Assembly: GCA_963717935.1 (NCBI GenBank)
Contig: CAVQXP010000004.1
Span: forward strand, 576,001 to 640,000
Length of the DNA: 64,000 nt
Origin: Candidatus Eiseniibacteriota bacterium
Lineage (GTDB): Bacteria > Eisenbacteria > RBG-16-71-46
Reading direction: 5' to 3'
The notes beneath the pieces were generated by a model. The model had not been told where the DNA came from, did no database searches, and saw only the letters and a list, made by a program, of their open reading frames with translations. The position numbers and the translations under genes were made by a program. Every line of letters starts with the position of its first letter. Position 1 is the first letter of the stretch. Positions 3,464 through 32,626 of this stretch are shown here, piece by piece.

Positions 3464-3654
3464 GCGTACCTCGGGGGGGCGGGAAGACGGCAGGGCGCGG
3501 GGTACCCACCGAAGGCGGGTCCGGCGCGCCCGGAACTCGAACGGAGGCGAAAGCCTAGCACGCGCCGTGAACGAGCGGCAATCGCTGGACGAAGGCTTGA
3601 CGAGGGCGCGGGCGAAGCGGGGACCACGGCGCGCGGCCGGCGGCCGCGCGCGCC

Positions 3655-21237: not shown

Positions 21238-23334
21238 CTATGCCTCCCCGATCTTCCCGTCGCCACCGGCCTTCGCGGTCGCCCCGGCCTTCGCCTGCTC
21301 CTCGGCCTCCATGCGCGCCCACTCGGCCGGGTGCTCGCGGCGCAGCTGTTCCTCGTTGATGAGCCCTGTCACCCAGGCCCAGTTCATCGGATAGACGTCC
21401 GGGTTCAGCATGTTCTGGTAGACGTGCCAGACCAGGATGGCGACGAGGGCCAGCCAGGCCTCGTAGTAATGCACCAGCGTGGCCAGGTCGAGGACCCACT
21501 TGGGCATCCACTGGAGCGACTGGTTCGCGAACCAGAGCAGAACCCCCGTCACGGTCATCAGGATCACGCCCCAGACCAGGGACCAGTATTCCGCCTTCTC
21601 GATGTAGGTGAAGCGGTCGAAGGCCGGCGGGTCGCGGCGCAACCCCACCAGGTACAGGATGTTGGCCCCGGCCTCGCGCACGTCTCGCAGCCCCGGCAGC
21701 AGGGCGACGAAGGTGCCGCGACCGCGCCGGGTGAACAGATGGGCGACGTGCACCAGGGACGTCCCGACCAGGACGACCGCGGCGACCCGATGGATGAGGC
21801 TGCGCCAGGCGAAGGCCCCCTCCAGGCGCGCCATCCACGAGAACGGCCACGACTCGGGGAACTTGAGCGCGAAGCCGGTCCAGATCAGGGCGAAGAAGCT
21901 GATCATCAGCAGCGCGTGCTGGATCCGCTCGCTCCGGTTGGTGCGCTCGTACCAGCGCCCCAGGCCTCGCTCCGGCTCCACCTCGCCGCGGTAGAGCCGG
22001 TAGTGGCGGCGCAGCTTGCGGGTGAAGTCCAGCCCCTGATGGACGGCCATGCTCCCGCCGAGCCCGAAGATGAGCCAGAGGTAGATCAGCCGAACGTAGT
22101 AAAGGACCGGGCTGCCGGCCGTGGCGATGACGACATGCACGGGGCCCAGCGCCGACCACTTGCCGGCGCCGGGATGGCACTTGCCGCAGGTCTCGCCCAG
22201 TCGTTCCGGGTTCACCGCAGAGCGCGGGTCGCTCGAGGGCAGGATGTCGTGGAAACCGTGGCAGGAAGAGCAGTTAGCGACAGCCTTCGAGCCGCCACGT
22301 GAGGCCAGACCGTGGAAGGAATCACGATATGTCGTGAGTCGGCCGGCCGGAAGACCGTAGGTCTCGCGGAGTCCCTGGGCCTCGTGGCAACGCGAGCAGG
22401 TCGTATTCACCGCGGAGGCCACGACCGGCGAGGCTGGATCGTGGGGCCCGCGGATCAGGTGCTCGCCGTGGCAGTCCGTGCAGTTGGGCGCCGCGGTGAC
22501 GCCGCGGCGCAGCGCCTGGCCGTGGATGCCCGTTTCAAAGGCCGCGAACTCGCGGGTGTGGCAACGCCCGCAGGTGTGCGGGACGTTGGTGCGGAAGATG
22601 GATGACGTGGGGTCGTTCGCGCGCTTCAGGTCGTGGCTCTCGTGGCAGTCGCTGCAGGTGGCCGCGCGCGGGTCTCGCGAGCGCCCGTGCACGCTCTTCG
22701 TGTAGAGCGCGTAGGCCTCGGGGATGGTGATCCGGCGCCGGGTCATGAGCGCGCGGTTCGCGTGGCAGCGGGCGCAGGTGTGCGGCAGGTTCGCGCGGTT
22801 GACCGGCGAGGCGGGGTCCGTGTGCGGGCGGATCGAGTGGAATGGCCCGTGGCAATCCTTGCAGGTCGAGGCCTCGGGGTCGCCGCGCGCGAGCGCCGTG
22901 CCGTGGACGCTGCCCTGGTACTGCCCGGTCACCTGTGCGTGGCAGCCGACGCAGGCGTCCGGGCCGGTTCGCGCGGGCCGGCGCACCTGGTGCCCCGACC
23001 CGTGGCAACCCAGGCAGGCCACCTCGTGCGGGCCCGCGGCCTGCCGGTGGGCGCTGCCGGCAATGGCGGCGGTCGCATCCTGGTGACAGGTGCCACACTG
23101 GACCTGTGGCAGGGCGGTCGCATGCGGCAGGCCCTTCACGCCCCCGTGGCAGGCCACACACGCCAGCCGCCCGTGCGGGGAGGCCTCGAGTTGTGCGAGG
23201 TCCACGTACGCCGTGCCCCCGCCGGAATCGCGCGCGAGGGCTCGATCGACGTGGCAGGTCATGCACACGTCGTTGCCGAGCGGCCCGGCGAGCGCGGGCA
23301 GGGCCAGGAAGGCGGCGAGCAGCGCAGCCGCCAT
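21238..23334 (-). CDS. 13-heme cytochrome c fused to FdnI-type di-heme cytochrome b (CbcL-like)
   Basis: 13 CxxCH motifs counted; signal peptide; C-terminal RIQH, IHR..VH, EKAEYW and VHYYEA..WH; start uncertain. Confidence 0.9.
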   Translation of the reverse strand: MAAALLAAFLALPALAGPLGNDVCMTCHVDRALARDSGGGTAYVDLAQLEASPHGRLACVACHGGVKGLPHATALPQVQCGTCHQDATAAIAGSAHRQAAGPHEVACLGCHGSGHQVRRPARTGPDACVGCHAQVTGQYQGSVHGTALARGDPEASTCKDCHGPFHSIRPHTDPASPVNRANLPHTCARCHANRALMTRRRITIPEAYALYTKSVHGRSRDPRAATCSDCHESHDLKRANDPTSSIFRTNVPHTCGRCHTREFAAFETGIHGQALRRGVTAAPNCTDCHGEHLIRGPHDPASPVVASAVNTTCSRCHEAQGLRETYGLPAGRLTTYRDSFHGLASRGGSKAVANCSSCHGFHDILPSSDPRSAVNPERLGETCGKCHPGAGKWSALGPVHVVIATAGSPVLYYVRLIYLWLIFGLGGSMAVHQGLDFTRKLRRHYRLYRGEVEPERGLGRWYERTNRSERIQHALLMISFFALIWTGFALKFPESWPFSWMARLEGAFAWRSLIHRVAAVVLVGTSLVHVAHLFTRRGRGTFVALLPGLRDVREAGANILYLVGLRRDPPAFDRFTYIEKAEYWSLVWGVILMTVTGVLLWFANQSLQWMPKWVLDLATLVHYYEAWLALVAILVWHVYQNMLNPDVYPMNWAWVTGLINEEQLRREHPAEWARMEAEEQAKAGATAKAGGDGKIGEA

Positions 23335-23803
23335 CGCGTTTCCCCCGGCCCGGCGCGGTCGCGCGCGCACCACGGTCCCGGCGCGCGGGGCCGCCAGCGG
23401 TGGAGAAGCTCGGTTCACGCCGGATGGCCTCCAGAAGGAAGAGGGTGTGGCCCCCCCCCGGACAAGGAATGGACCACGGAAGACCTTTTCTGGCAAGGTC
23501 TTCAAGCGGCCAAGTCGTCAGGTGGTAACGGGGGGCCGGGATGGTACCTTCGGATGTCTTGCCAGCGAGGCGCCAATTCAGTAGAAATACTGATGTCTGG
23601 GACGGCGCGGGGCCGCTCGCCGGCTCCCCGGCCCGGTCCTGTGCAAGGAACTCGCGGCGTTCGAGCGGTCCGTAGTTCTACCGAATCTTCGACGTGTCCC
23701 TTGCCGGAATTGGTTACTCTCCGAGACAGGTCTCGTGGGTCGCACGCGACGCCTCGACCTCGTGTTCTCAGGTGGGCGGTTACCTTCAAGGCCGGAGGGG
23801 CTG

Positions 23804-24367
23804 ATGATCAAGAGCATCTTCGCGTTCGTCGTGCTGGGGGTGCTGGCGGTGGGCGCCGCGTCGCGGGCCGCGGACGCTCCGAAGGCGGACGCGCCGAAGA
23901 ACGACTACGTCGGCACGACCCTGAAGACCTGCATGTGCCACTACAAAGAGTTCAAGGCGTGGTCGGCGACCCCGCACGCGCACGCCCTCGAGACCCTGCA
24001 GGCCACCACGCCCGAGCAGCTGAAGAAGATGAACGAGCGGCTCGAGACCGCGGTGAAGGATCACCCGGAGAGTGATGCCGCGTGCCTGGGCTGCCACGTG
24101 ACCGGTTACAGGACGGGCGGCTACCCCGCGGCTGACTCGCTCAAGAACGCCGCGCTGGCTCGCGTGACCTGCGAGGTCTGCCACGGCCCCGCCAGGAACC
24201 ACCTGACGGTGCCGGCCAACGACAAGGCGGGCCGGAAGGCCTCCATGCTGGTCCCGACGGCCGAGACCTGCAAGAAGTGCCACACCGATGCCACCTCGCC
24301 GAAGTTCGACTTCGCGGAGCGGAGCCAGAAGGTGCACCCCGTCGCCGCCAGGGCGCCCGCGAAGTAA
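23804..24367 (+). CDS. c554-like tetraheme cytochrome c with 3 CxxCH and one contracted CxCH motif
   Basis: Signal peptide; YVG...CMCH...W..TPHAHA, CLGCHVTG, VTCEVCHGP and CKKCH; GGAGG RBS. Confidence 0.85.
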   Translation: MIKSIFAFVVLGVLAVGAASRAADAPKADAPKNDYVGTTLKTCMCHYKEFKAWSATPHAHALETLQATTPEQLKKMNERLETAVKDHPESDAACLGCHVTGYRTGGYPAADSLKNAALARVTCEVCHGPARNHLTVPANDKAGRKASMLVPTAETCKKCHTDATSPKFDFAERSQKVHPVAARAPAK

Positions 24368-24388: not shown

Positions 24389-27229
24389 ATGGAGACCCGT
24401 ACGGGCCGGCCTGCCAGTCGCGGGCCGGCCCGCGGCCTGTTCACCGGGCTCCTCGCGCTGGCCGGAGCGCTCCTTGCCGGCGCGTTGCTCCACCCGGCGG
24501 CGTGGTCGGCGCCGGAGGCGGTGAAGCCGCTCCCCGGCGCCGAGGACTGCATGGCCTGCCACGAGGCCGGCCCGCCACTCGCGAAGCGCGACGCCGACAC
24601 GCCGCCGCGCTTCGACGCCTCCGGGCTGCGCGCCTCGCCCCACGCGAAAGTGGCCTGCGCCGCCTGCCACGCGGACCTCGAGGGCAAGGAGTTCCCGCAC
24701 GAGACGAAGCCGGCGCCGGTCCGCTGTGGCGCCTGCCATGCGACCGAGCAGCAGCAGTTCGTCGAGAGCCTGCACGGCCAGGCCGCCGCGCGCGGGGAGA
24801 AGCTCGCCCCCTCGTGCAAGGACTGCCACGGACGGCACGGCGTGCTGCCGCGCAACGACCCGCGCTCGCCCGCGAACACGGTCAACGTCCCCGCGCTGTG
24901 CGGGCGCTGCCATCACGAGGGCTCGCCGGTCCAGCTCACCTACCACATCCCGCAGGACTCGATCCTCCAGAACTACTCCGAGTCCATCCACGGCGAGGGG
25001 TTGTTCCGCAAGGGCCTGCTCACGACCGCCGTGTGCACCTCGTGTCACACCGCGCACCACGTGCTGCCGCACACCGACCCGCGCTCGAGCATCGCGCGCC
25101 GCAACGTGGCCGCCACCTGCACGCAGTGCCACGTGCGCATCGAGCAGGTGCACCGCAAGATCATCAACGGGGTGCTGTGGGAGAGCCGCCCCAACGACAT
25201 CCCCGCCTGCGTGGACTGCCACCAGCCGCACAAGGCGCGGCGGGTCTTCTATACCCAGGGCATGGCGGACCGCGACTGCCTGACCTGTCACGGCCGGCGC
25301 GAGCTGCGGGCCCAGGGCGGACGCTCGATGTTCGTGGACACGGCCGTGCTGCAGGGCTCGCGCCACGCGAAGATCGCCTGCGCGCAGTGCCACAGCGAGG
25401 CGCAGCCCTCGCACGCCCGGCCCTGCTCTTCGATCACGCGCCGGGTGGACTGCTCGGTCTGCCACGCCGGGGTCGTGGACTCCTACCGGGAGAGCACCCA
25501 TGGGCGACTGGCCGCGAAGGGCAGCCCCGACGCCCCGGCCTGCCGCGACTGTCACGGCACGCACGGCACCCTGGGGCACCTGCAGTCGGACGCGCCGACC
25601 TACGCGCGCAACGTCCCGGCGCTGTGCGGGCGCTGCCACCTGAGCGGCAAGCAGGCCCAGGTGCGCTATCGCGGGACGGAGCGCCGCGTGGTGGAATCCT
25701 ACGTCGAGAGCATCCACGGCAAGGGGTTGCTCGAGAGCGGCCTCACCGTGACCGCGACCTGCGTGGACTGCCACACCACGCACGGCGAGCTGCCGCACAC
25801 CGACCCGGCGTCCAGCGTCAACCCGGCGAACGTGGCGAAGACCTGTGCCCGCTGCCACCGGGGCATCTACGAGCTGTTCGCGGCCAGCGTGCACTCGCCC
25901 GTGGTGACGAAGACGAAGCGTCCGCTGCCCACCTGCTCCGACTGCCACTCGGCCCACACCATCAACCGCACCGACCGGCAGGATTTCAAGTTCGCGATCA
26001 TGAGCCAGTGCGGCAAGTGCCACGAGGACCTGGCGAAGACCTACTTCGAGACGTACCACGGCAAGGTCTCGCGGCTCGGCTACCTCAAGACCGCCAAGTG
26101 CTACGACTGCCACGGCGCGCACGACATCCAGCCGAACTGGGACCCCCGCTCGCACCTGTCGCGGCAGAACATCGTGAAGACCTGCGGCCAGTGTCACCCC
26201 GGCTCGAACCGGCGCTTCGCCGGCTACCTCACGCACGCGACCCACCACGAGCCGCACAAGTACCCGGCGCTGTTCTTCACCTTCTGGGGCATGACGGTCC
26301 TGCTGGTCGGCACCTTCGGCTTCTTCGGCCTGCACACGCTCGCCTGGCTGCCGCGCTCGCTCCAGTACCGGCGCCAGCTCGCGAAGTCGCAAGCCGCGGA
26401 GGGCGAGCTGCACGTGCGGCGCTTCCCGCCGCTCTACCGCAACCTGCACCTGATGGTGATCGTCTCCTTCCTCGGGCTGGCGCTCACCGGCATGACGCTC
26501 AAGTTCTCCTACACCCCGTGGGCCTACGTCCTGTCGCGGGTGCTCGGCGGGTTCCAGGCGGCGGGCTTCATCCACCGGGTCTGCGCGGGGATCACCTTCG
26601 CCTACTTCTTCCTGCACCTGCGCGACATGATCCGCCGCCGGGCGAAGTCCGGCGTGTCGTGGCGGACGTTCCTCGCCGGCCCGGGCGGGATGCTGCCCGG
26701 GCGGCGGGACCTCGAGGAGTTCTGGCAGTCGGTGAAGTGGTTCGCCGGCCGGGGCCCGAGGCCGCAGTACGGCCGCTGGACCTACTGGGAGAAGTTCGAC
26801 TACTTCGCGGTGTTCTGGGGCGTGGCCATGATCGGCTCGACCGGGCTCGTGCTCTGGTTCCCGACCCTCTTCACCCGGCTCCTGCCCGGCATCTTCATCA
26901 ACCTCGCGACCATCATCCACAGCGACGAAGCGCTGCTCGCGGTGGGCTTCATCTTCACCGTGCACTTCTTCAACACGCACTTCCGGCCCGAGAAATTCCC
27001 CATGGATACGGTGATCTTCACCGGCACCGTGCCGCTCGAGGAGTTCAAGCAGGACCGTCCGCGCGAGTACGAGGCCCTGACGGAGAGCGGCGAACTGGAG
27101 GCCCGGCTCGAGCCGGCGCCCGCGCCCCGCACGGTGCGCGCCTGGCGCATCTTCGGCTTCGTCGCTCTCTCGGTCGGCATCCTGATGGTGCTGCTGATCG
27201 TCTACGCGACGGTCTTCGGGTATCGGTAG
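24389..27229 (+). CDS. 19-heme cytochrome c fused to FdnI-type di-heme cytochrome b (CbcL-like)
   Basis: 19 CxxCH motifs counted; NLH, IHR..LH, WTYWEKFDYFAVFWG and IHSDEA..VHFFN. Confidence 0.92.
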   Translation: METRTGRPASRGPARGLFTGLLALAGALLAGALLHPAAWSAPEAVKPLPGAEDCMACHEAGPPLAKRDADTPPRFDASGLRASPHAKVACAACHADLEGKEFPHETKPAPVRCGACHATEQQQFVESLHGQAAARGEKLAPSCKDCHGRHGVLPRNDPRSPANTVNVPALCGRCHHEGSPVQLTYHIPQDSILQNYSESIHGEGLFRKGLLTTAVCTSCHTAHHVLPHTDPRSSIARRNVAATCTQCHVRIEQVHRKIINGVLWESRPNDIPACVDCHQPHKARRVFYTQGMADRDCLTCHGRRELRAQGGRSMFVDTAVLQGSRHAKIACAQCHSEAQPSHARPCSSITRRVDCSVCHAGVVDSYRESTHGRLAAKGSPDAPACRDCHGTHGTLGHLQSDAPTYARNVPALCGRCHLSGKQAQVRYRGTERRVVESYVESIHGKGLLESGLTVTATCVDCHTTHGELPHTDPASSVNPANVAKTCARCHRGIYELFAASVHSPVVTKTKRPLPTCSDCHSAHTINRTDRQDFKFAIMSQCGKCHEDLAKTYFETYHGKVSRLGYLKTAKCYDCHGAHDIQPNWDPRSHLSRQNIVKTCGQCHPGSNRRFAGYLTHATHHEPHKYPALFFTFWGMTVLLVGTFGFFGLHTLAWLPRSLQYRRQLAKSQAAEGELHVRRFPPLYRNLHLMVIVSFLGLALTGMTLKFSYTPWAYVLSRVLGGFQAAGFIHRVCAGITFAYFFLHLRDMIRRRAKSGVSWRTFLAGPGGMLPGRRDLEEFWQSVKWFAGRGPRPQYGRWTYWEKFDYFAVFWGVAMIGSTGLVLWFPTLFTRLLPGIFINLATIIHSDEALLAVGFIFTVHFFNTHFRPEKFPMDTVIFTGTVPLEEFKQDRPREYEALTESGELEARLEPAPAPRTVRAWRIFGFVALSVGILMVLLIVYATVFGYR

Positions 27230-27673: not shown

Positions 27674-27940
27674 GGGTTCGACTCCTTCCGTCCGGGCCCG
27701 GGACTGCGTGGGTTCGTCGTCACACGGTAGGACGGAAGGCAGGCGGGAAAGGTTGCCAGTCCCGTCCGGGCGCCCCGGGGCGGGCCACGAGCGCGGCGCG
27801 AAGGCGCCGGGAGGTCAGGGAGGTGTAAGGCGCTGCGCGCTCCCGTTTCGCGGCGCCGAACGCCGTCCGCTGGCGCGGGTGCTGCGGACGGCGGGCCGGC
27901 GCCGGGCGCCGCAGGTCACGGGCGCGGCCGGCCCGCGACC

Positions 27941-29773
27941 TCAGCCCTGGTGGCACTGCGCGCACGCGGCCTGCGTGGGCCTCAACCGGCCGCCCGCCGG
28001 GTCGTGGCAGGTCTTGCATTCCAGTTCCATCGCGAGATGGGCCTCGTGGGAGAAGTCCCCGCGGAAGCTCCGCACGGTGCGCGTCTTCACGTCGGCGTGG
28101 CATTGCAGGCACGAGCCACCGGCGACCGCGGCCTTCCGATGATGGCAGGGGACACAGCCGGCCGGCCCGAAGCGCACGACTTCCCCGGGTCCGCGCTGCT
28201 CGTGCGTCCGGTGACAGGCGGCGCACTCGAGTTTCGCCTCGAGCAGGTGCGGACCATGGTCGAAGGCCTTGCCCTGCCAGGCCCCGCGCTGTGCTTCGAC
28301 GCCGGTGTGGCACAACAGGCAGCGTCCCGAACTGGCGCCCGCGCGCCGCCAGGGCGACGCGAGCGGGGCCAGTCCCTTCGCGCGGCGCGCCTCGTTCATC
28401 CGCTCGTGCGCCTCGTCGAGCAGGGCGTAGGCGTAGGTGATGTTGTGCACGGCCCGGCCCCGCGAGACCAGCAGGAAGTCGTGCCGCGCGTCCTGCCAGG
28501 CCTGCGGCGGCTCCGGGCCCATCGCGCCCGCGGTCGCCTCGAGCTGGCGCTGCAGCGCGGTGACGCGCTCCGCCGAGGCGCGCTGCCAGGACTCGAAGAT
28601 CCGCTGGTAGGCGGGCCCGTGGCAGGCCATGCAGGAGACGCCGTCGGCGCGCTGGATGACGGGCTCGAGCGGATCCCTCACGGCCCGGGCCGCTGCGGTC
28701 CTGTCGTCGTGACAGCCCCGGCAGGTGACGCCGACTGCGTACATCGGTCCGGGCATGTCGGGCACGCCGCGTCCGCCGGTGCCGGCGTAGAGGCTCTGCT
28801 GCGCGCTGTGGCCCGCGCCGTGGCAGGCGCCGCAGGCGCTTGCGTCGCCGGGGCCCGCGTCGTGCGCGTCGCCCGCCCGGGCCGCCCCCGGCGGCGTGCC
28901 GTGCTCGATGGCCAGGTGGCAGTCCGTGCAGTCCACCTTGTGCTTCGAGACGTGCCAGTCGTGCAGGTAGTCCGTGTCGCCGTAGCGCGCGAGCCGCTCG
29001 GGCTGGTTGTGGCAGGTGAGGCAGTGGGTCTGCGGCACGTCGCCCGCTCCGCGGTTCACGCCCGCGTGACACGCGGTGCACTCGGTGCCCAGGCGCGCGA
29101 CCTCGCCGTGGTCGAACGCGGTGCCGGCGGCGGTGGTGACGCGTCCCGGGACGGTGTGACAGAGCCGGCAGCGCGCGGTGCCCTGGTCCGGCGCCTGGCC
29201 CTTGAAGTGGCACAGCGCGCACGTGACCGGGGTGACCGCGATGTGGGTTCCGACCATGACCTGCGAGTGGCACGAGGTGCAGCGCAGCCGGAAGCCCTTG
29301 CGGCTCTCGGTCAGGTGGGGCGTGTGATCGAAGATGACGCCGTGATAATCGACGCGGCCCTCGAGCAGCCGGCGCTCGTGGCAGCGCAGGCAGTTGGCGT
29401 CGTCCACCTCGGCCCAGGGCTTGGTGCCATAGGTGCCGGTGAAGTACTTCACCACCATCGAGAGCGCCTCGTACTTCTTGCGCAGCTCGGCGCCGATGCC
29501 CGGCGAGATGTGGCAGTCCACGCAGGCGACCTGGTTGTGCTTCGAGGTCTTCCACGAGGCGTAGTAGGGCTTCATGACGTGGCAGGTGCCGCAGAACCGC
29601 GGCGTCGAGGTGCCCAGCATCGCCAGCAGGACGAGCACGGCGAAGAGCCCGAGCGCGAGCCCGACGGTGAGCGTGGCGACGCGCAGGCCGCGGGGCGAGA
29701 GCCGCCCGCCGCCGCGGCGGTCCACCCAGCGGCCGAGGCGGGAGTCGGGTCCGAGGCCCGGCAGCGGCGGCAT
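27941..29773 (-). CDS. Membrane-anchored 18-heme cytochrome c with N-terminal NapC/NirT/NrfH domain
   Basis: N-terminal TM, TSTPRFCGTCHVM (CxxCHxM), W.TSKH..VACVDCH; 18 CxxCH motifs counted. Confidence 0.9.
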   Translation of the reverse strand: MPPLPGLGPDSRLGRWVDRRGGGRLSPRGLRVATLTVGLALGLFAVLVLLAMLGTSTPRFCGTCHVMKPYYASWKTSKHNQVACVDCHISPGIGAELRKKYEALSMVVKYFTGTYGTKPWAEVDDANCLRCHERRLLEGRVDYHGVIFDHTPHLTESRKGFRLRCTSCHSQVMVGTHIAVTPVTCALCHFKGQAPDQGTARCRLCHTVPGRVTTAAGTAFDHGEVARLGTECTACHAGVNRGAGDVPQTHCLTCHNQPERLARYGDTDYLHDWHVSKHKVDCTDCHLAIEHGTPPGAARAGDAHDAGPGDASACGACHGAGHSAQQSLYAGTGGRGVPDMPGPMYAVGVTCRGCHDDRTAAARAVRDPLEPVIQRADGVSCMACHGPAYQRIFESWQRASAERVTALQRQLEATAGAMGPEPPQAWQDARHDFLLVSRGRAVHNITYAYALLDEAHERMNEARRAKGLAPLASPWRRAGASSGRCLLCHTGVEAQRGAWQGKAFDHGPHLLEAKLECAACHRTHEQRGPGEVVRFGPAGCVPCHHRKAAVAGGSCLQCHADVKTRTVRSFRGDFSHEAHLAMELECKTCHDPAGGRLRPTQAACAQCHQG

Positions 29774-31021
29774 CTAGCCCCTTTTCGCGGCCTGATCGCG
29801 GAAGCGCTTGAGCACGAACAGCGTCAGCAGCACGTAGAACCAGAACGCCAGGAGCACGTACTTGTGCTGGCGCAGGTTCCCGAGCTTGCCCCGGATCTCC
29901 TGCTGGACCTCCTGGCCCACCGCGCGGGCCCGCGTGGTGAAGCCGGCCACGACCTCCGGCTGCACGGAGTGCGCCGCGGGCAGAGCCTCGCGCAGATAGG
30001 TGCGCGCCTCCTCGATGCGGGCGTGATAGTCCTCGGTCGGGATGGGGATGGCGTCGGCCTTCACGACCAGCGCCACGGCCTTGTCCACCTCGTCCGCCGC
30101 CGTGCGGTAGTCGGACCCGATGCGCCGGCCCAGGTCGAGACGGCGTGAATCGCCCTCGTGGCAGAGGACGCACGAAGTCGCCAGCCGTTCGGGCCGGGTG
30201 GCCTGCACGGCGTGGGCCCCGTGGCAGGTGGCGCACTCGGGGCGCCGGCCGCCCGCCTGACCGCCGGTGGCGGCCGCGGCCGCGTGCGCGCCCGCGGCGA
30301 GGTAGCGCCGCTCGACCGTGTGGCACCGCCCGCACACCTTGATCACCGAGCCCGCGTCGGGCGGGGCGGCGCCGTGCGCGCCGTGACAGGAGACGCAGGT
30401 GGGCGCGCGCAGGTTGCTCTTCCCGGCCAACTCCTGCGCGTGCACGCTCGACTCGTACTGCCGGAAGACGTTGGGTCGCCCGCGCGGTCCCATGAGCACG
30501 GTGTCCCCGTGGCAGCGCCCGCAGGTGCGCGGGACATGGAGCGCGTACGTCGAACTCGCGGGGTCGCGGGTCGCGAGGATCTCGTGCGCGCCATGGCAGT
30601 CGGAGCACACCGCGACCCGGTCGTCGCCCCGCGCGAGCCGTCGCCCGTGCCCCGAGATCTGGTAGAGCGCGTACGAGTCCACGGGCAGGCCATAGGGGCG
30701 CATCCGGGCCTCGTCCGCATGGCACGAGGCGCAGAGCTTCGGGATGTCCCGGCGCGCGGGACGGCCGCGGTAGTCGCGGCCGTGGGCGACCGCGGCGTCG
30801 AGGCTGCGGTCGTCGCCGCCGTGGCACGAGACGCAGCGCACGCCTTCGGGGGCGTGGCGGCTCTTCTCGAACTGGACGCGCTCGGCCGGGTGACAGATGC
30901 CGCAGCGGCCCGAGGCCGCGGTGACGGCCGCCGATCCCGCCGCAGGCGCGGGCGGACCGGTCTGCGCGTGAGCGGTCGGGGCCGTGGCGGCCAGGAGCAG
31001 GAGAGCGAGCGCGGTCCTCAT
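29774..31021 (-). CDS. 9-heme cytochrome c with signal peptide and C-terminal TM anchor
   Basis: 9 CxxCH motifs; MRTALALLLLAATAPTAHA signal; C-terminal YVLLAFWFYVLLTLFVL; GGAGG RBS. Confidence 0.9.
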   Translation of the reverse strand: MRTALALLLLAATAPTAHAQTGPPAPAAGSAAVTAASGRCGICHPAERVQFEKSRHAPEGVRCVSCHGGDDRSLDAAVAHGRDYRGRPARRDIPKLCASCHADEARMRPYGLPVDSYALYQISGHGRRLARGDDRVAVCSDCHGAHEILATRDPASSTYALHVPRTCGRCHGDTVLMGPRGRPNVFRQYESSVHAQELAGKSNLRAPTCVSCHGAHGAAPPDAGSVIKVCGRCHTVERRYLAAGAHAAAAATGGQAGGRRPECATCHGAHAVQATRPERLATSCVLCHEGDSRRLDLGRRIGSDYRTAADEVDKAVALVVKADAIPIPTEDYHARIEEARTYLREALPAAHSVQPEVVAGFTTRARAVGQEVQQEIRGKLGNLRQHKYVLLAFWFYVLLTLFVLKRFRDQAAKRG

Positions 31022-31025
31022 CGCC

Positions 31026-32159
31026 CTACCTCCGTTCGAGCAGCGCGCCGAGCACGCTGAGCACGAGCCACGCTCCGAGCACGGCAACGCCGGCCAGCCG
31101 GATGCGGCGCCTTCGCGGGCGGGTCTCCTCGCCGCGCAGCCACAGCGGCATGAGCAGCACCGCGATGGCCGCCGCCAGCAGCACGAGCCCGCTCAGCCAC
31201 GCGGGCACGGGCAGGTGCTGCAGCAGGACATAGGGGGCCAGCATGTACCACGGCGGGCGCGCTCCGCCGGGCGTGGCGTAGGGGTCGGCCGCGCCGTGGA
31301 AGCGGAAGGGCAGCAGCGTGGCCAGGGTGACCAGCACGGCGAACAGGCCGACCGTGAGCATGGTCATCGAGTAGACGTGCTCGCGATAGTGGATGGTCCG
31401 CTCGTCGCGCACCGCCTCGGCCCGGCTCAGACCGACGCGCCGCAGCGTGGCGAAGGTCAGGTAGAGGAAGCCGGCGTAGAACACCGGCAGGACCATCAGG
31501 TGCAGCACGTAGAAGCGGATCAGCACGTCCGCATTCACGGTCCGTCCACCCAGCAGGAAGGCCAGCACCGGGCCGGCGATCGGGATCGCCCACACGACCT
31601 CCAGCCCGCGCACCGTGCTCCAGTAGGTGTGCGAGTCCCAGATGAGGAGCCTCCCGGTGAAGTCCGACTGGATGACCACCCAGGTCGTGGCCACCGCGCA
31701 CCACCACAGCACCTCGCGCGGGGCGCGGTACAGACCCTCCCAGAAGAACCGCAGCAGCCGCAGCACGATGACGCCCACCAGCAGCCACGAGCCCCAGGCG
31801 TGCATCTGGTGGATGAACCAGCCGCCCGGCAGGTCGCGCACGATGGTGCGCGTGCTCTCGAAGGCGGCCTCGGGCGTGGGCCGGTAGTAATAGGCGAGCA
31901 GGACGCCCGTCACGATCTGCAGGCCGAACAGGATGGCGGCCAGCAGTCCCAGCGCGCGCGCGCCGTGCGCGTAGCGGGGCACCGGCTCCGCGGCCACGTC
32001 GCGCAGTACCTCGCGCACCGGTTTCTGCGTGTCCACCGGCGTGTAGACCAGGCCGAAGTGGGTGAGGAAGGAGAAGATCTCGCTCAGGTTCACGCGCTGC
32101 TCGAGCCAGTCCACCCAGCTCCTGCGCGCGGGCGGGTCCTGCCGGCCGGGCCCGTTCAT
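31026..32159 (-). CDS. Cytochrome b of a Rieske/cytb complex (b6 plus subunit IV fused), atypical heme ligands
   Basis: QIVTGVLLAYYY.P, GWFIHQMHAW, YRAPRE, FTG.LL.WD, RFYVLH and PPWY; ATG overlaps the Rieske stop. Confidence 0.9.
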   Translation of the reverse strand: MNGPGRQDPPARRSWVDWLEQRVNLSEIFSFLTHFGLVYTPVDTQKPVREVLRDVAAEPVPRYAHGARALGLLAAILFGLQIVTGVLLAYYYRPTPEAAFESTRTIVRDLPGGWFIHQMHAWGSWLLVGVIVLRLLRFFWEGLYRAPREVLWWCAVATTWVVIQSDFTGRLLIWDSHTYWSTVRGLEVVWAIPIAGPVLAFLLGGRTVNADVLIRFYVLHLMVLPVFYAGFLYLTFATLRRVGLSRAEAVRDERTIHYREHVYSMTMLTVGLFAVLVTLATLLPFRFHGAADPYATPGGARPPWYMLAPYVLLQHLPVPAWLSGLVLLAAAIAVLLMPLWLRGEETRPRRRRIRLAGVAVLGAWLVLSVLGALLERR

Positions 32160-32626
32160 ACCTGGACGAAGATCTCGCCGGCGCGCACCGATGCCGGGTA
32201 GCCGGGCAGCGGCCGGGGCGGCGGGCCGGAGAGCACGTTGCCCGAGAGGTCGAAGCGCCCGTCGTGGCAGGGGCAGACCAGCGTCCTGCGGGCCGGGTCG
32301 TAGCCCAGGATGCAGCGCACGTGGGTGCACACCGCCGAGAGGGCCAGCACGCGCGTGGCGTCGAGGCGGATCACGTAGAAGGGCGTCACCCCGTGACGCA
32401 CGAGGCGGCCCTCGCCCACGCGATAGTCATCGAGGAGCCCCGCGCTCACCGTCCGCTCGGAGTCGCGCTCGCGCTTCTCGGGGGCCTTGAGGTAGGCGCC
32501 CACCACGGCGACGGCGCCGAGTCCCCAGAGCGCGAGGAACGCCTGCGAGAGCACGGTGAGGAAGCGGCGCCGGTCCGGTGGCGTGGACGCCGGCAGGTGG
32601 ATCGGCCGGTCTTCGGGGATCGGCAT
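32156..32626 (-). CDS. Rieske [2Fe-2S] subunit with Tat signal
   Basis: DRRRFL Tat motif plus TM; CTHVRC, CPCHDGRF and GPPPRPL. Confidence 0.93.
   Translation of the reverse strand: MPIPEDRPIHLPASTPPDRRRFLTVLSQAFLALWGLGAVAVVGAYLKAPEKRERDSERTVSAGLLDDYRVGEGRLVRHGVTPFYVIRLDATRVLALSAVCTHVRCILGYDPARRTLVCPCHDGRFDLSGNVLSGPPPRPLPGYPASVRAGEIFVQV

Follow-up and report, generated by a model that had tools for sequence, protein, structure and literature searches.

A conserved cytochrome b of Eisenbacteria without the heme bH site, encoded with a Rieske protein and two multiheme cytochromes: a candidate one-heme complex

Background

The two b hemes of cytochrome b are treated as invariable. A major survey excluded sequences missing any of the four histidines before analysis (PMC4122944), with the result that clades lacking heme bH were dropped from view. 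The window analysed here (the whole stretch of 64,000 nucleotides) encodes a Rieske-associated cytochrome b which, according to the original prediction, lacks both heme bH ligands and the Glu of the PEWY motif. The prediction attributed this to selection, not decay, and proposed a one-heme complex unable to run a canonical Q-cycle, either non-bifurcating or passing the bL electron to another partner. Does the gene belong to a conserved family and, if so, what would such a complex do?

We call this cytochrome b 'b1' (window 31026-32159, minus strand) and the canonical four-His PEWY paralog of its relatives 'b2'. G000 is the present genome; L-numbers are loci of relatives and P-numbers homologous proteins.

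The cytochrome b gene

The following features were located in b1 (window coordinates):

31026..32159, minus strand: cytochrome b (b1), 377 amino acids, N- and C-terminal parts fused, seven transmembrane helices; bL site intact, bH, Qi and ci sites lost
31800..31802, minus strand: His120, heme bL ligand of helix B (120/120 listed homologs)
31500..31502, minus strand: His220, heme bL ligand of helix D (120/120 listed homologs; 50/50 loci)
31758..31760, minus strand: Arg134 in place of the helix-B bH ligand, the clade signature (120/120 listed homologs; 50/50 loci)
31458..31460, minus strand: Leu234, codon checked
31455..31457, minus strand: Thr235 in place of the helix-D bH ligand (Thr in 118 and Ser in 2 of 120 listed homologs; His in 13/50 loci)
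31608..31610, minus strand: Arg184, Qo/Rieske-docking position (Val/Ile in 112/122 four-His controls)
31245..31256, minus strand: PPWY Qo motif (P in 118, P in 119, W in 120 and Y in 120 of the 120 listed homologs)
32010..32084, minus strand: conserved N-terminal insertion of about 20 residues before helix A, with His34 (32058-32060); the span is 40 residues against about 20 in controls

The reading frame is open throughout. Profile searches match it to PF00033 (E 4e-31) and also to PF00032, and structural searches agree: Foldseek matches the b1 model to cytochrome b structures (E 5e-13) and VIA aligns 334-341 residues (Z 28.8, rmsd 4.0-4.4 Å). By these matches, b1 has the cytochrome b fold, the N-terminal as well as the C-terminal part. 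The AlphaFold2 monomer (pLDDT 78.5, falling to 41-65 at the N-terminus) contains seven long membrane helices.

Alignment with the solved b6 and bc1 chains has no gaps through helices B and D. By the residue roles of the b6 reference, H120 and H220 occupy the bL ligand positions, R134 and T235 those of the bH ligands and A69 that of the heme ci Cys. The original prediction had placed the bL histidines, the Arg 14 residues on in helix B, the Leu/Thr pair in helix D and the PPWY motif correctly to the codon, and had rightly reported the ci Cys as missing.

Homologs of b1 numbered 436; counts out of 120 refer to the 120 listed and aligned (63-93% identity). A distant set comprised the best 150 of 4621 representatives: 122 four-His proteins, used as controls, 18 with R134, five fragments and five with other ligand losses.

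Heme pockets and quinone sites

In b1 the bis-His bL site is in place and the bis-His bH site is gone, R134 and T/S235 each being present in 120/120 listed homologs. The change extends beyond the ligands. With pocket filling judged by residue volumes over listed heme-lining positions, the mean side-chain volumes summed over the bH side come to 3501-3639 Å3 in three b1 sets against 3297 Å3 in the 122 controls, and those of the bL side are not raised (2835-2915 against 2970 Å3). The enlargements are S/G72 to L/I, V/T138 to F/L, A/S143 to L/V and G155 to A, the last position being Gly in 121/122 controls and Ala in 118/120 listed b1 homologs. Position 265, whose acid we take to be the Qi acid, is D/E in 93/122 controls and M/L in the b1 clade, which has A/V at the ci Cys position. 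Judged from the sequences, bulkier residues now fill the bH pocket and no Qi acid remains, which supports the predicted loss of heme bH; b1 would carry a single heme. The prediction had also named the histidines of N-terminal THF and AHG motifs as possible replacement ligands. The latter, His65, is conserved in only 14/120 listed homologs and is ruled out; the former, His34, is conserved in the main subclade only (111/120 listed homologs; 34/50 loci) and is considered below.

The frame of the Qo site is near-invariant among the 120 listed homologs (W180, ADPxxTP, PPWY). The missing Glu of PEWY is real, but PPWY was dropped as a special feature: Pro is the second residue of the motif in 19% of representative sequences, a known natural variant, and reverse operation has been associated with Qo motifs that contain Pro (PMC4122944). 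Other positions deviate. R184 is found in 50/50 loci and in 16/16 distant clade members covered there, and Arg in only 4/122 controls. Tyr170 (94/122 controls) is replaced in the clade by R, K, H or another polar residue; further changes are G/A164 to Q/F/I, S/T at 181, D166, and H117 for the usual Arg. In b1 itself PPWY and W180 are kept and R184, R170, Q164 and D166 deviate, leaving quinol binding putative. By residue count, R184 corresponds to Rhodobacter V161 and position 181 to G158; V161 is among the quinone-contacting residues, and bulk at G158 blocks binding (PMC7908018). The Qo site is remodelled, a point that the prediction overlooked, and may be inactive.

Conservation and distribution

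Both TG motifs (T84-G85, T168-G169) are invariant among the 120 listed homologs. In 50 genomic loci R134, R184, E187 and H220 are invariant, with Thr at position 235 in 37 and His in 13. The claim that exactly the two bH ligands were lost therefore stands for helix B and needs amending for helix D. The pair R134 with T/S235 occurs in 120/120 homologs down to 63% identity, and R134 persists to about 35%. In a quick tree of 56 rows (12 rows excluded as long, partial or duplicate and 27 as near-redundant) a branch with 100% SH-aLRT sets the R134 group apart from the canonical proteins, and the helix-D His was lost after R134 appeared, separately as T, S and N. Together with the counts in the distant set, the tree speaks against a chance pattern. 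What defines the clade is the replacement of the helix-B His by Arg. P0138, with four His and R184/E187, nests inside the bH-less group and may be an intermediate, a reversion or a chimera. Elsewhere P0145, P0159, P0215, P0251 and P0254 have F/L, F/L, H/Q, I/S and Y/H, respectively, at residues 134/235, which suggests more independent bH-ligand losses in cytochrome b.

Four b1 pairs give dN/dS values of 0.18-0.28 by the Nei-Gojobori method and two b2 pairs give 0.16-0.27, all probably inflated by GC-rich DNA. The b1 family is a conserved clade under purifying selection, not a decaying gene, as originally proposed. The b1 gene of L006 has an internal TAG near its C-terminus (L006:10946-10948 region), through error or truncation. 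In two RNA-labelled runs, contigs cover the module at about 90% identity; they provide no evidence of expression because their depth is flat and they are 60-90 kb long, as for DNA. No sequencing run matched half of the words searched, and no habitat is assigned.

Carriers among the named loci are mostly Ca. Eisenbacteria, and a b1 match of at least 41% identity was found in 63/206 genomes of the phylum. One deep clade member is labelled Acidobacteriota, and it is in Gemmatimonadota that the nearest Atlas cluster occurs most often; the range of the clade is likely wider than Eisenbacteria. L003 and L025 are labelled Terriglobales and Verrucomicrobiia, yet their b1 nests among Eisenbacteria (mislabelled bins or transfer).

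Rieske and multiheme partners

Three further genes make up the module with b1:

32156..32626, minus strand: Rieske protein with twin-arginine motif and transmembrane anchor; all FeS ligands and the disulfide Cys (box 1 CTHVRC, box 2 CPCHDGRF)
29774..31021, minus strand: 9-heme cytochrome c with signal peptide and C-terminal transmembrane anchor; paralog of the 9-heme partner in the canonical module
27941..29773, minus strand: 18-heme cytochrome c with N-terminal transmembrane helix and NrfH/NapC-like domain (CxxCHxM; invariant KKxEAxxM; match to 2j7a, E 7e-8)

The Rieske stop overlaps the b1 ATG (GTATGA), in keeping with the translational coupling named in the prediction, and the next gene spacings are 4 and 0 bases. 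The Rieske protein has two Cys and two His ligands with the disulfide (CTHVRC/CPCH). Its box 2 carries the G-F signature in 101/104 scored motifs, a signature of low potential (PMC4122944, section 21). The box-1 Gly is replaced in 107/107 scored sequences (R 90, H 16, Q 1; basic in 106/107) and the box-2 His is followed by D/E in 83/104. The Rieske protein of the canonical paralog has CTHLGC in 9/10 loci and a G-Y signature. As a guess from these sequences, the basic Rieske residue could pair with E187 of b1, and R184 with the acidic box-2 residue, clamping the Rieske head; if so, linear electron flow would be favoured. A second Rieske gene in the genome has a cysteine desulfurase as its neighbour, not a cytochrome b.

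The order Rieske, b1, 9-heme, 18-heme is fixed. Where there is room, the 9-heme gene directly follows b1 in 72/72 loci (43/43 genomic, 29/29 metagenomic) and the 18-heme gene lies within 2.2 kb in 56/56 (43/43 genomic, 13/13 metagenomic); these counts include kin and are not independent. The 18-heme gene is present in 60/63 carrier genomes and in all 38 high-quality ones.

The N-terminal domain of the 18-heme protein comprises a transmembrane helix, the CxxCHxM of heme 1 and the equivalent of NrfH Lys82. In pairwise alignment with 2j7a the position of NrfH Asp89 is Val or Met, depending on register, with an invariant Glu nearby; the score against TIGR03153 (62 bits) is below the 134 cut-off. 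This NrfH-like neighbour is a natural candidate for the 'other partner' of the bL electron. A close match to it also occurs in 7 of the 65 non-carrier genomes examined (of 143 non-carriers): one on a cut contig with a 9-heme gene, one beside regulators and five 11-16-heme forms. At least five of the seven are clearly free-standing, and since the protein is also found without b1 it could be a self-sufficient quinol dehydrogenase. Four of the five 11-16-heme forms have FQA(L/I)SQ at the motif. L054, L056, L057 and L058 hold free-standing 13-16-heme relatives with FQA(L/I)SQ, against xEAxxM in the b1-linked proteins. No cytoplasmic acceptor gene was found to co-travel with the module.

Canonical paralog and genomic neighbourhood

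The following neighbours lie beyond the 18-heme gene:

27674..27940, no strand: spacer of 267 bp where close relatives hold a 5.9-kb block (comparison with L001 and L002)
24389..27229, plus strand: fusion of a 19-heme cytochrome c with an FdnI-type b-cytochrome domain
21238..23505, minus strand: fusion of a 13-heme cytochrome c with a b561/FdnI-type domain; true start probably downstream

The 5.9-kb block (L001:14175-20056) encodes an octaheme cytochrome, a TAT 4Fe-4S NrfC-like protein, an NrfD-like protein and the canonical triplet of Rieske protein, cytochrome b and 9-heme cytochrome. It was not found anywhere in the present assembly, through either deletion or assembly loss. The canonical triplet (Rieske, four-His PEWY b2, 9-heme) lies near b1 in 8/31 loci, in tandem in L008. 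The helix A-B sequence of b2 resembles the Chlorobi/NC10/Chloracidobacterium group. The b2 gene was found in 42/63 carrier genomes (23/38 high-quality); of the 15 high-quality carriers without it, five have another cytochrome b-like match and ten none, although incomplete assemblies could account for a few of these absences. In the present genome (93% complete, five contigs) b1 is the sole PF00033 match.

The 13-heme/b561 fusion has a CbcL-like layout. Both the 13- and the 19-heme fusions recur beside the module in most relatives, the 19-heme gene being split into heme and membrane parts in family f18. Between them (window 23735-24367) lies a c554-like cytochrome with three CxxCH motifs and one CMCH. 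Cytochromes with 42 hemes occur near the module or its neighbours in L014, L016, L018-L020, L025, L055, L060 and L062. Another locus of the present genome, G000:C4:1028866-1032681 (L070:8867-12682), encodes a decaheme, a 523-aa protein resembling outer-membrane beta-barrels and a hexaheme and is a candidate porin-cytochrome conduit; its decaheme is DmsE-like below the cut-off, and the barrel is an Atlas lead (one cluster 55% MtrB_PioB). The flanking b561 fusions and the decaheme/beta-barrel-like/hexaheme locus point to periplasmic or extracellular electron transfer.

The present genome encodes a bd oxidase and has an NrfD gene beside a molybdopterin gene; no COX1-family match was found in it. 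Exposure to oxygen is likely because all 17 relatives tested have COX1-family (heme-copper-oxidase-family) matches.

Proposed mechanism

We consider about evenly balanced the chances that b1 is a one-heme, non-Q-cycle menaquinol oxidoreductase that delivers both electrons to the periplasm. The basis is the retention of the bL and FeS ligands together with the loss of the bH ligands and pocket, the ci Cys and the Qi acid; the heme count and partner binding are inferred. The Rieske protein, the one-heme cytochrome b and the cytochromes with 9 and 18 hemes would together form a four-subunit inner-membrane module linking the menaquinone pool to periplasmic heme wires without a Q-cycle. Quinol would react at the remodelled periplasmic Qo site; one electron would be taken up by the low-potential FeS cluster and handed to the 9-heme cytochrome, and the other would go to bL, leaving on the same, periplasmic, side since bL would have no transmembrane exit.

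The route that we prefer for the second electron, although tentatively, runs from bL into the 18-heme protein, to the membrane-surface heme in its NrfH-like domain, giving two periplasmic wires of different potential. Alternatively, and with somewhat more doubt, it may return via semiquinone and FeS, by analogy with the engineered bH-less b6f, which has 5% turnover, is non-electrogenic and supports growth (PMC3112540). By either route the enzyme would be electroneutral, yielding scalar protons only, and would suit acceptors whose potential is too low to fund a Q-cycle. The reverse direction, quinone reduction from periplasmic donors, is possible. By established Q-cycle chemistry, loss of the bH, ci and Qi features leaves no transmembrane low-potential chain unless there is a new heme site, and electrogenic Q-cycle turnover is predicted to be absent.

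The intact bL and Rieske ligands, the fixed gene order and the frequency with which b1 is the sole cytochrome b are consistent with this main reading. In addition, about 23 Å separates FeS from bL in known complexes (PMC7908018, PMC3112540), and a quinone reacting between the two is the simplest explanation for the retention of both under selection. Against it, the Qo site is heavily altered, with R184 at a quinone-lining position, so that quinol binding may fail; the 18-heme protein could itself be the quinol dehydrogenase; and bH-less Qo sites produce reactive oxygen species (PMC3112540), which counts given the likely oxygen exposure. The two-wire route faces the further objection that bL is buried, so that a path of under about 14 Å to an outside heme is hypothetical.

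A bolder version, which we hold to be possible but doubtful, is bifurcation confined to the periplasm: the clamped FeS would feed the 9-heme wire and bL the NrfH-like heme of the 18-heme wire. If this is true, reduction of a high-potential acceptor would drive low-potential extracellular reduction, or the reverse (confurcation), and the 18-heme protein would substitute for bH and Qi.

Alternative explanations

The altered Qo site also allows b1 to be seen as a Qo-inactive relay or scaffold, the main rival to our reading, though one that we think rather improbable. R184 and its neighbours would shut the quinol site and hold the Rieske head fast against cytochrome b. The NrfH-like domain or the b561 fusions would carry out the quinone chemistry, and b1 with its FeS/bL would only position or buffer the wires. 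The universality of R184 in the clade and its rarity in controls, the invariant E187, and the basic box-1 and acidic box-2 residues of the Rieske protein, which would form reciprocal salt bridges, all fit; so do the CxxCHxM, the Lys82 equivalent and the free-standing relatives of the 18-heme protein, and structural retention has been proposed for the bH-less cytochrome b of Acidocella (PMC10715153). However, the 23-Å gap between two selected cofactors is best explained by a quinone, the PxWY loop and W180 are nearly invariant, all Rieske ligands are kept, unlike in Acidocella, and the Asp89 position is non-acidic in the 2j7a alignment. Restoration of a transmembrane path by a second heme on other cytoplasmic-side ligands (His34/His34' on the dimer axis, or His261/His235) is unlikely. 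H34 and H261 are indeed conserved among the listed close homologs (111/120 and 119/120), H34 occurs mainly where H235 is lost (34/37 T235 loci, 0/13 H235 loci), and for anammox complexes AlphaFold3 predicts a b heme at the interface, bound by pairs of N-terminal His (PMC12954380). Yet the H34/H235 pattern amounts to a single phylogenetic event, neither His is present in L079, L083, L091, L093, L107, L109, L110, P0124 and P0135, the bH pocket is filled, the Qi acid is lost and no cytoplasmic acceptor gene accompanies the module.

Could the bL electron instead cross a b1/b2 heterodimer to the bH and Qi site of b2? Cross-monomer transfer sustains an engineered bc1 in vivo (PMC4152375), and b2 occurs in two-thirds of carriers, at times beside b1 as described above. 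Against this, b2 was not found in 21/63 carriers (15/38 high-quality), and ten of the 38 high-quality carriers, the present genome included, have no other cytochrome b detected; b2 comes with Rieske and 9-heme genes of its own, often lies at a distance or is transcribed divergently, and is not the sister of b1 in the quick tree. An obligate heterodimer was rejected on the absence of the canonical partner from so many carriers, including this one, and we consider the whole idea very unlikely. Decay, a pseudogene or sequencing error has a negligible probability: the internal stop in L006 and the missing 5.9-kb block here could be cited in its favour, but the same substitutions recur in every listed homolog, with low dN/dS and an invariant gene order.

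Comparison with known systems

The b1 module shares with canonical bc1/b6f complexes the fold, the 15-residue b6-type spacing of the helix-D histidines, the bL ligands, the TG motifs, a Rieske partner with all its ligands and an anchored cytochrome c. It differs in lacking the bH ligands, Qi acid and ci Cys, in its filled bH pocket, in R184/R170 at Qo, in the basic Rieske box 1 and in the additional NrfH-like 18-heme subunit.

Natural losses of bH ligands have been described. In the 'deranged' bc1 of Acidiphilium and Acidocella a conserved cytochrome b has lost both bH His, as in b1, but 3-4 Rieske ligands are missing or there is no Rieske gene, the partner is cytochrome c1 and the complex is read as non-functional (PMC10715153); the Rieske protein of the b1 module is intact and its partners are 9- and 18-heme cytochromes. 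Pyrobaculum cytochrome b has lost one bH ligand, in helix D (PMC4122944), and in cyanobacterial subfamily K the helix-B His is Glu/Gln (PMC5600118). Both are of obscure function and from unrelated lineages, and the available portions of these papers report no comparable multiheme module. Subfamily K proteins are short and lack the helix-A Gly; b1, a fused protein of 377 amino acids with Arg134 and G71 (113/120), does not belong to them.

Engineered bH-less complexes (Chlamydomonas b6f H202Q/QiKO, PMC3112540; Rhodobacter H212N) have bL and FeS only, as proposed for b1, and residual non-electrogenic quinol oxidase activity by short-circuit (PMC3112540). Those laboratory mutants retain a wild-type Qo site and turn over at about 5%, whereas the b1 clade is natural, with a co-evolved Qo site and partner. 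The net function predicted for the module, electroneutral quinol oxidation on the periplasmic side, is that of the NapC/NrfH/ImcH quinol dehydrogenases (bioRxiv 2023.05.03.539133), whose domain (2j7a) the 18-heme subunit shares. These enzymes, however, work without Rieske protein or cytochrome b, and the distal Asp position of heme 1 is non-acidic in the 18-heme protein by pairwise alignment.

A literature search found no account of the Rieske/b1/9-heme/18-heme module, although Dibrova 2013, ten Brink 2013 and supplementary lists might mention the group. In the first part of the Dibrova 2017 supplement, helix-B Arg motifs gave three matches, none shown at the ligand position. Loss of the bH ligands in nature is already in the literature, and b1, with its intact Rieske protein and multiheme module, is a conserved form of a known complex for which an unusual mechanism is proposed.

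Conclusions

Natural exceptions already in print either have an obscure function or are taken to be dead. In b1 the Rieske protein is intact, the gene is under purifying selection, it is often the only cytochrome b of its genome and heme wires serve as its dedicated partners. Nature thereby provides a test case for the old question of how short-circuits at the Qo site are prevented or permitted, and for whether bifurcation can be used without a Q-cycle. Genome annotations of a 'bc complex' can overstate proton pumping, and the module bears on how uncultured bacteria of the Eisenbacteria type match their energy yield to the potential of their acceptors.
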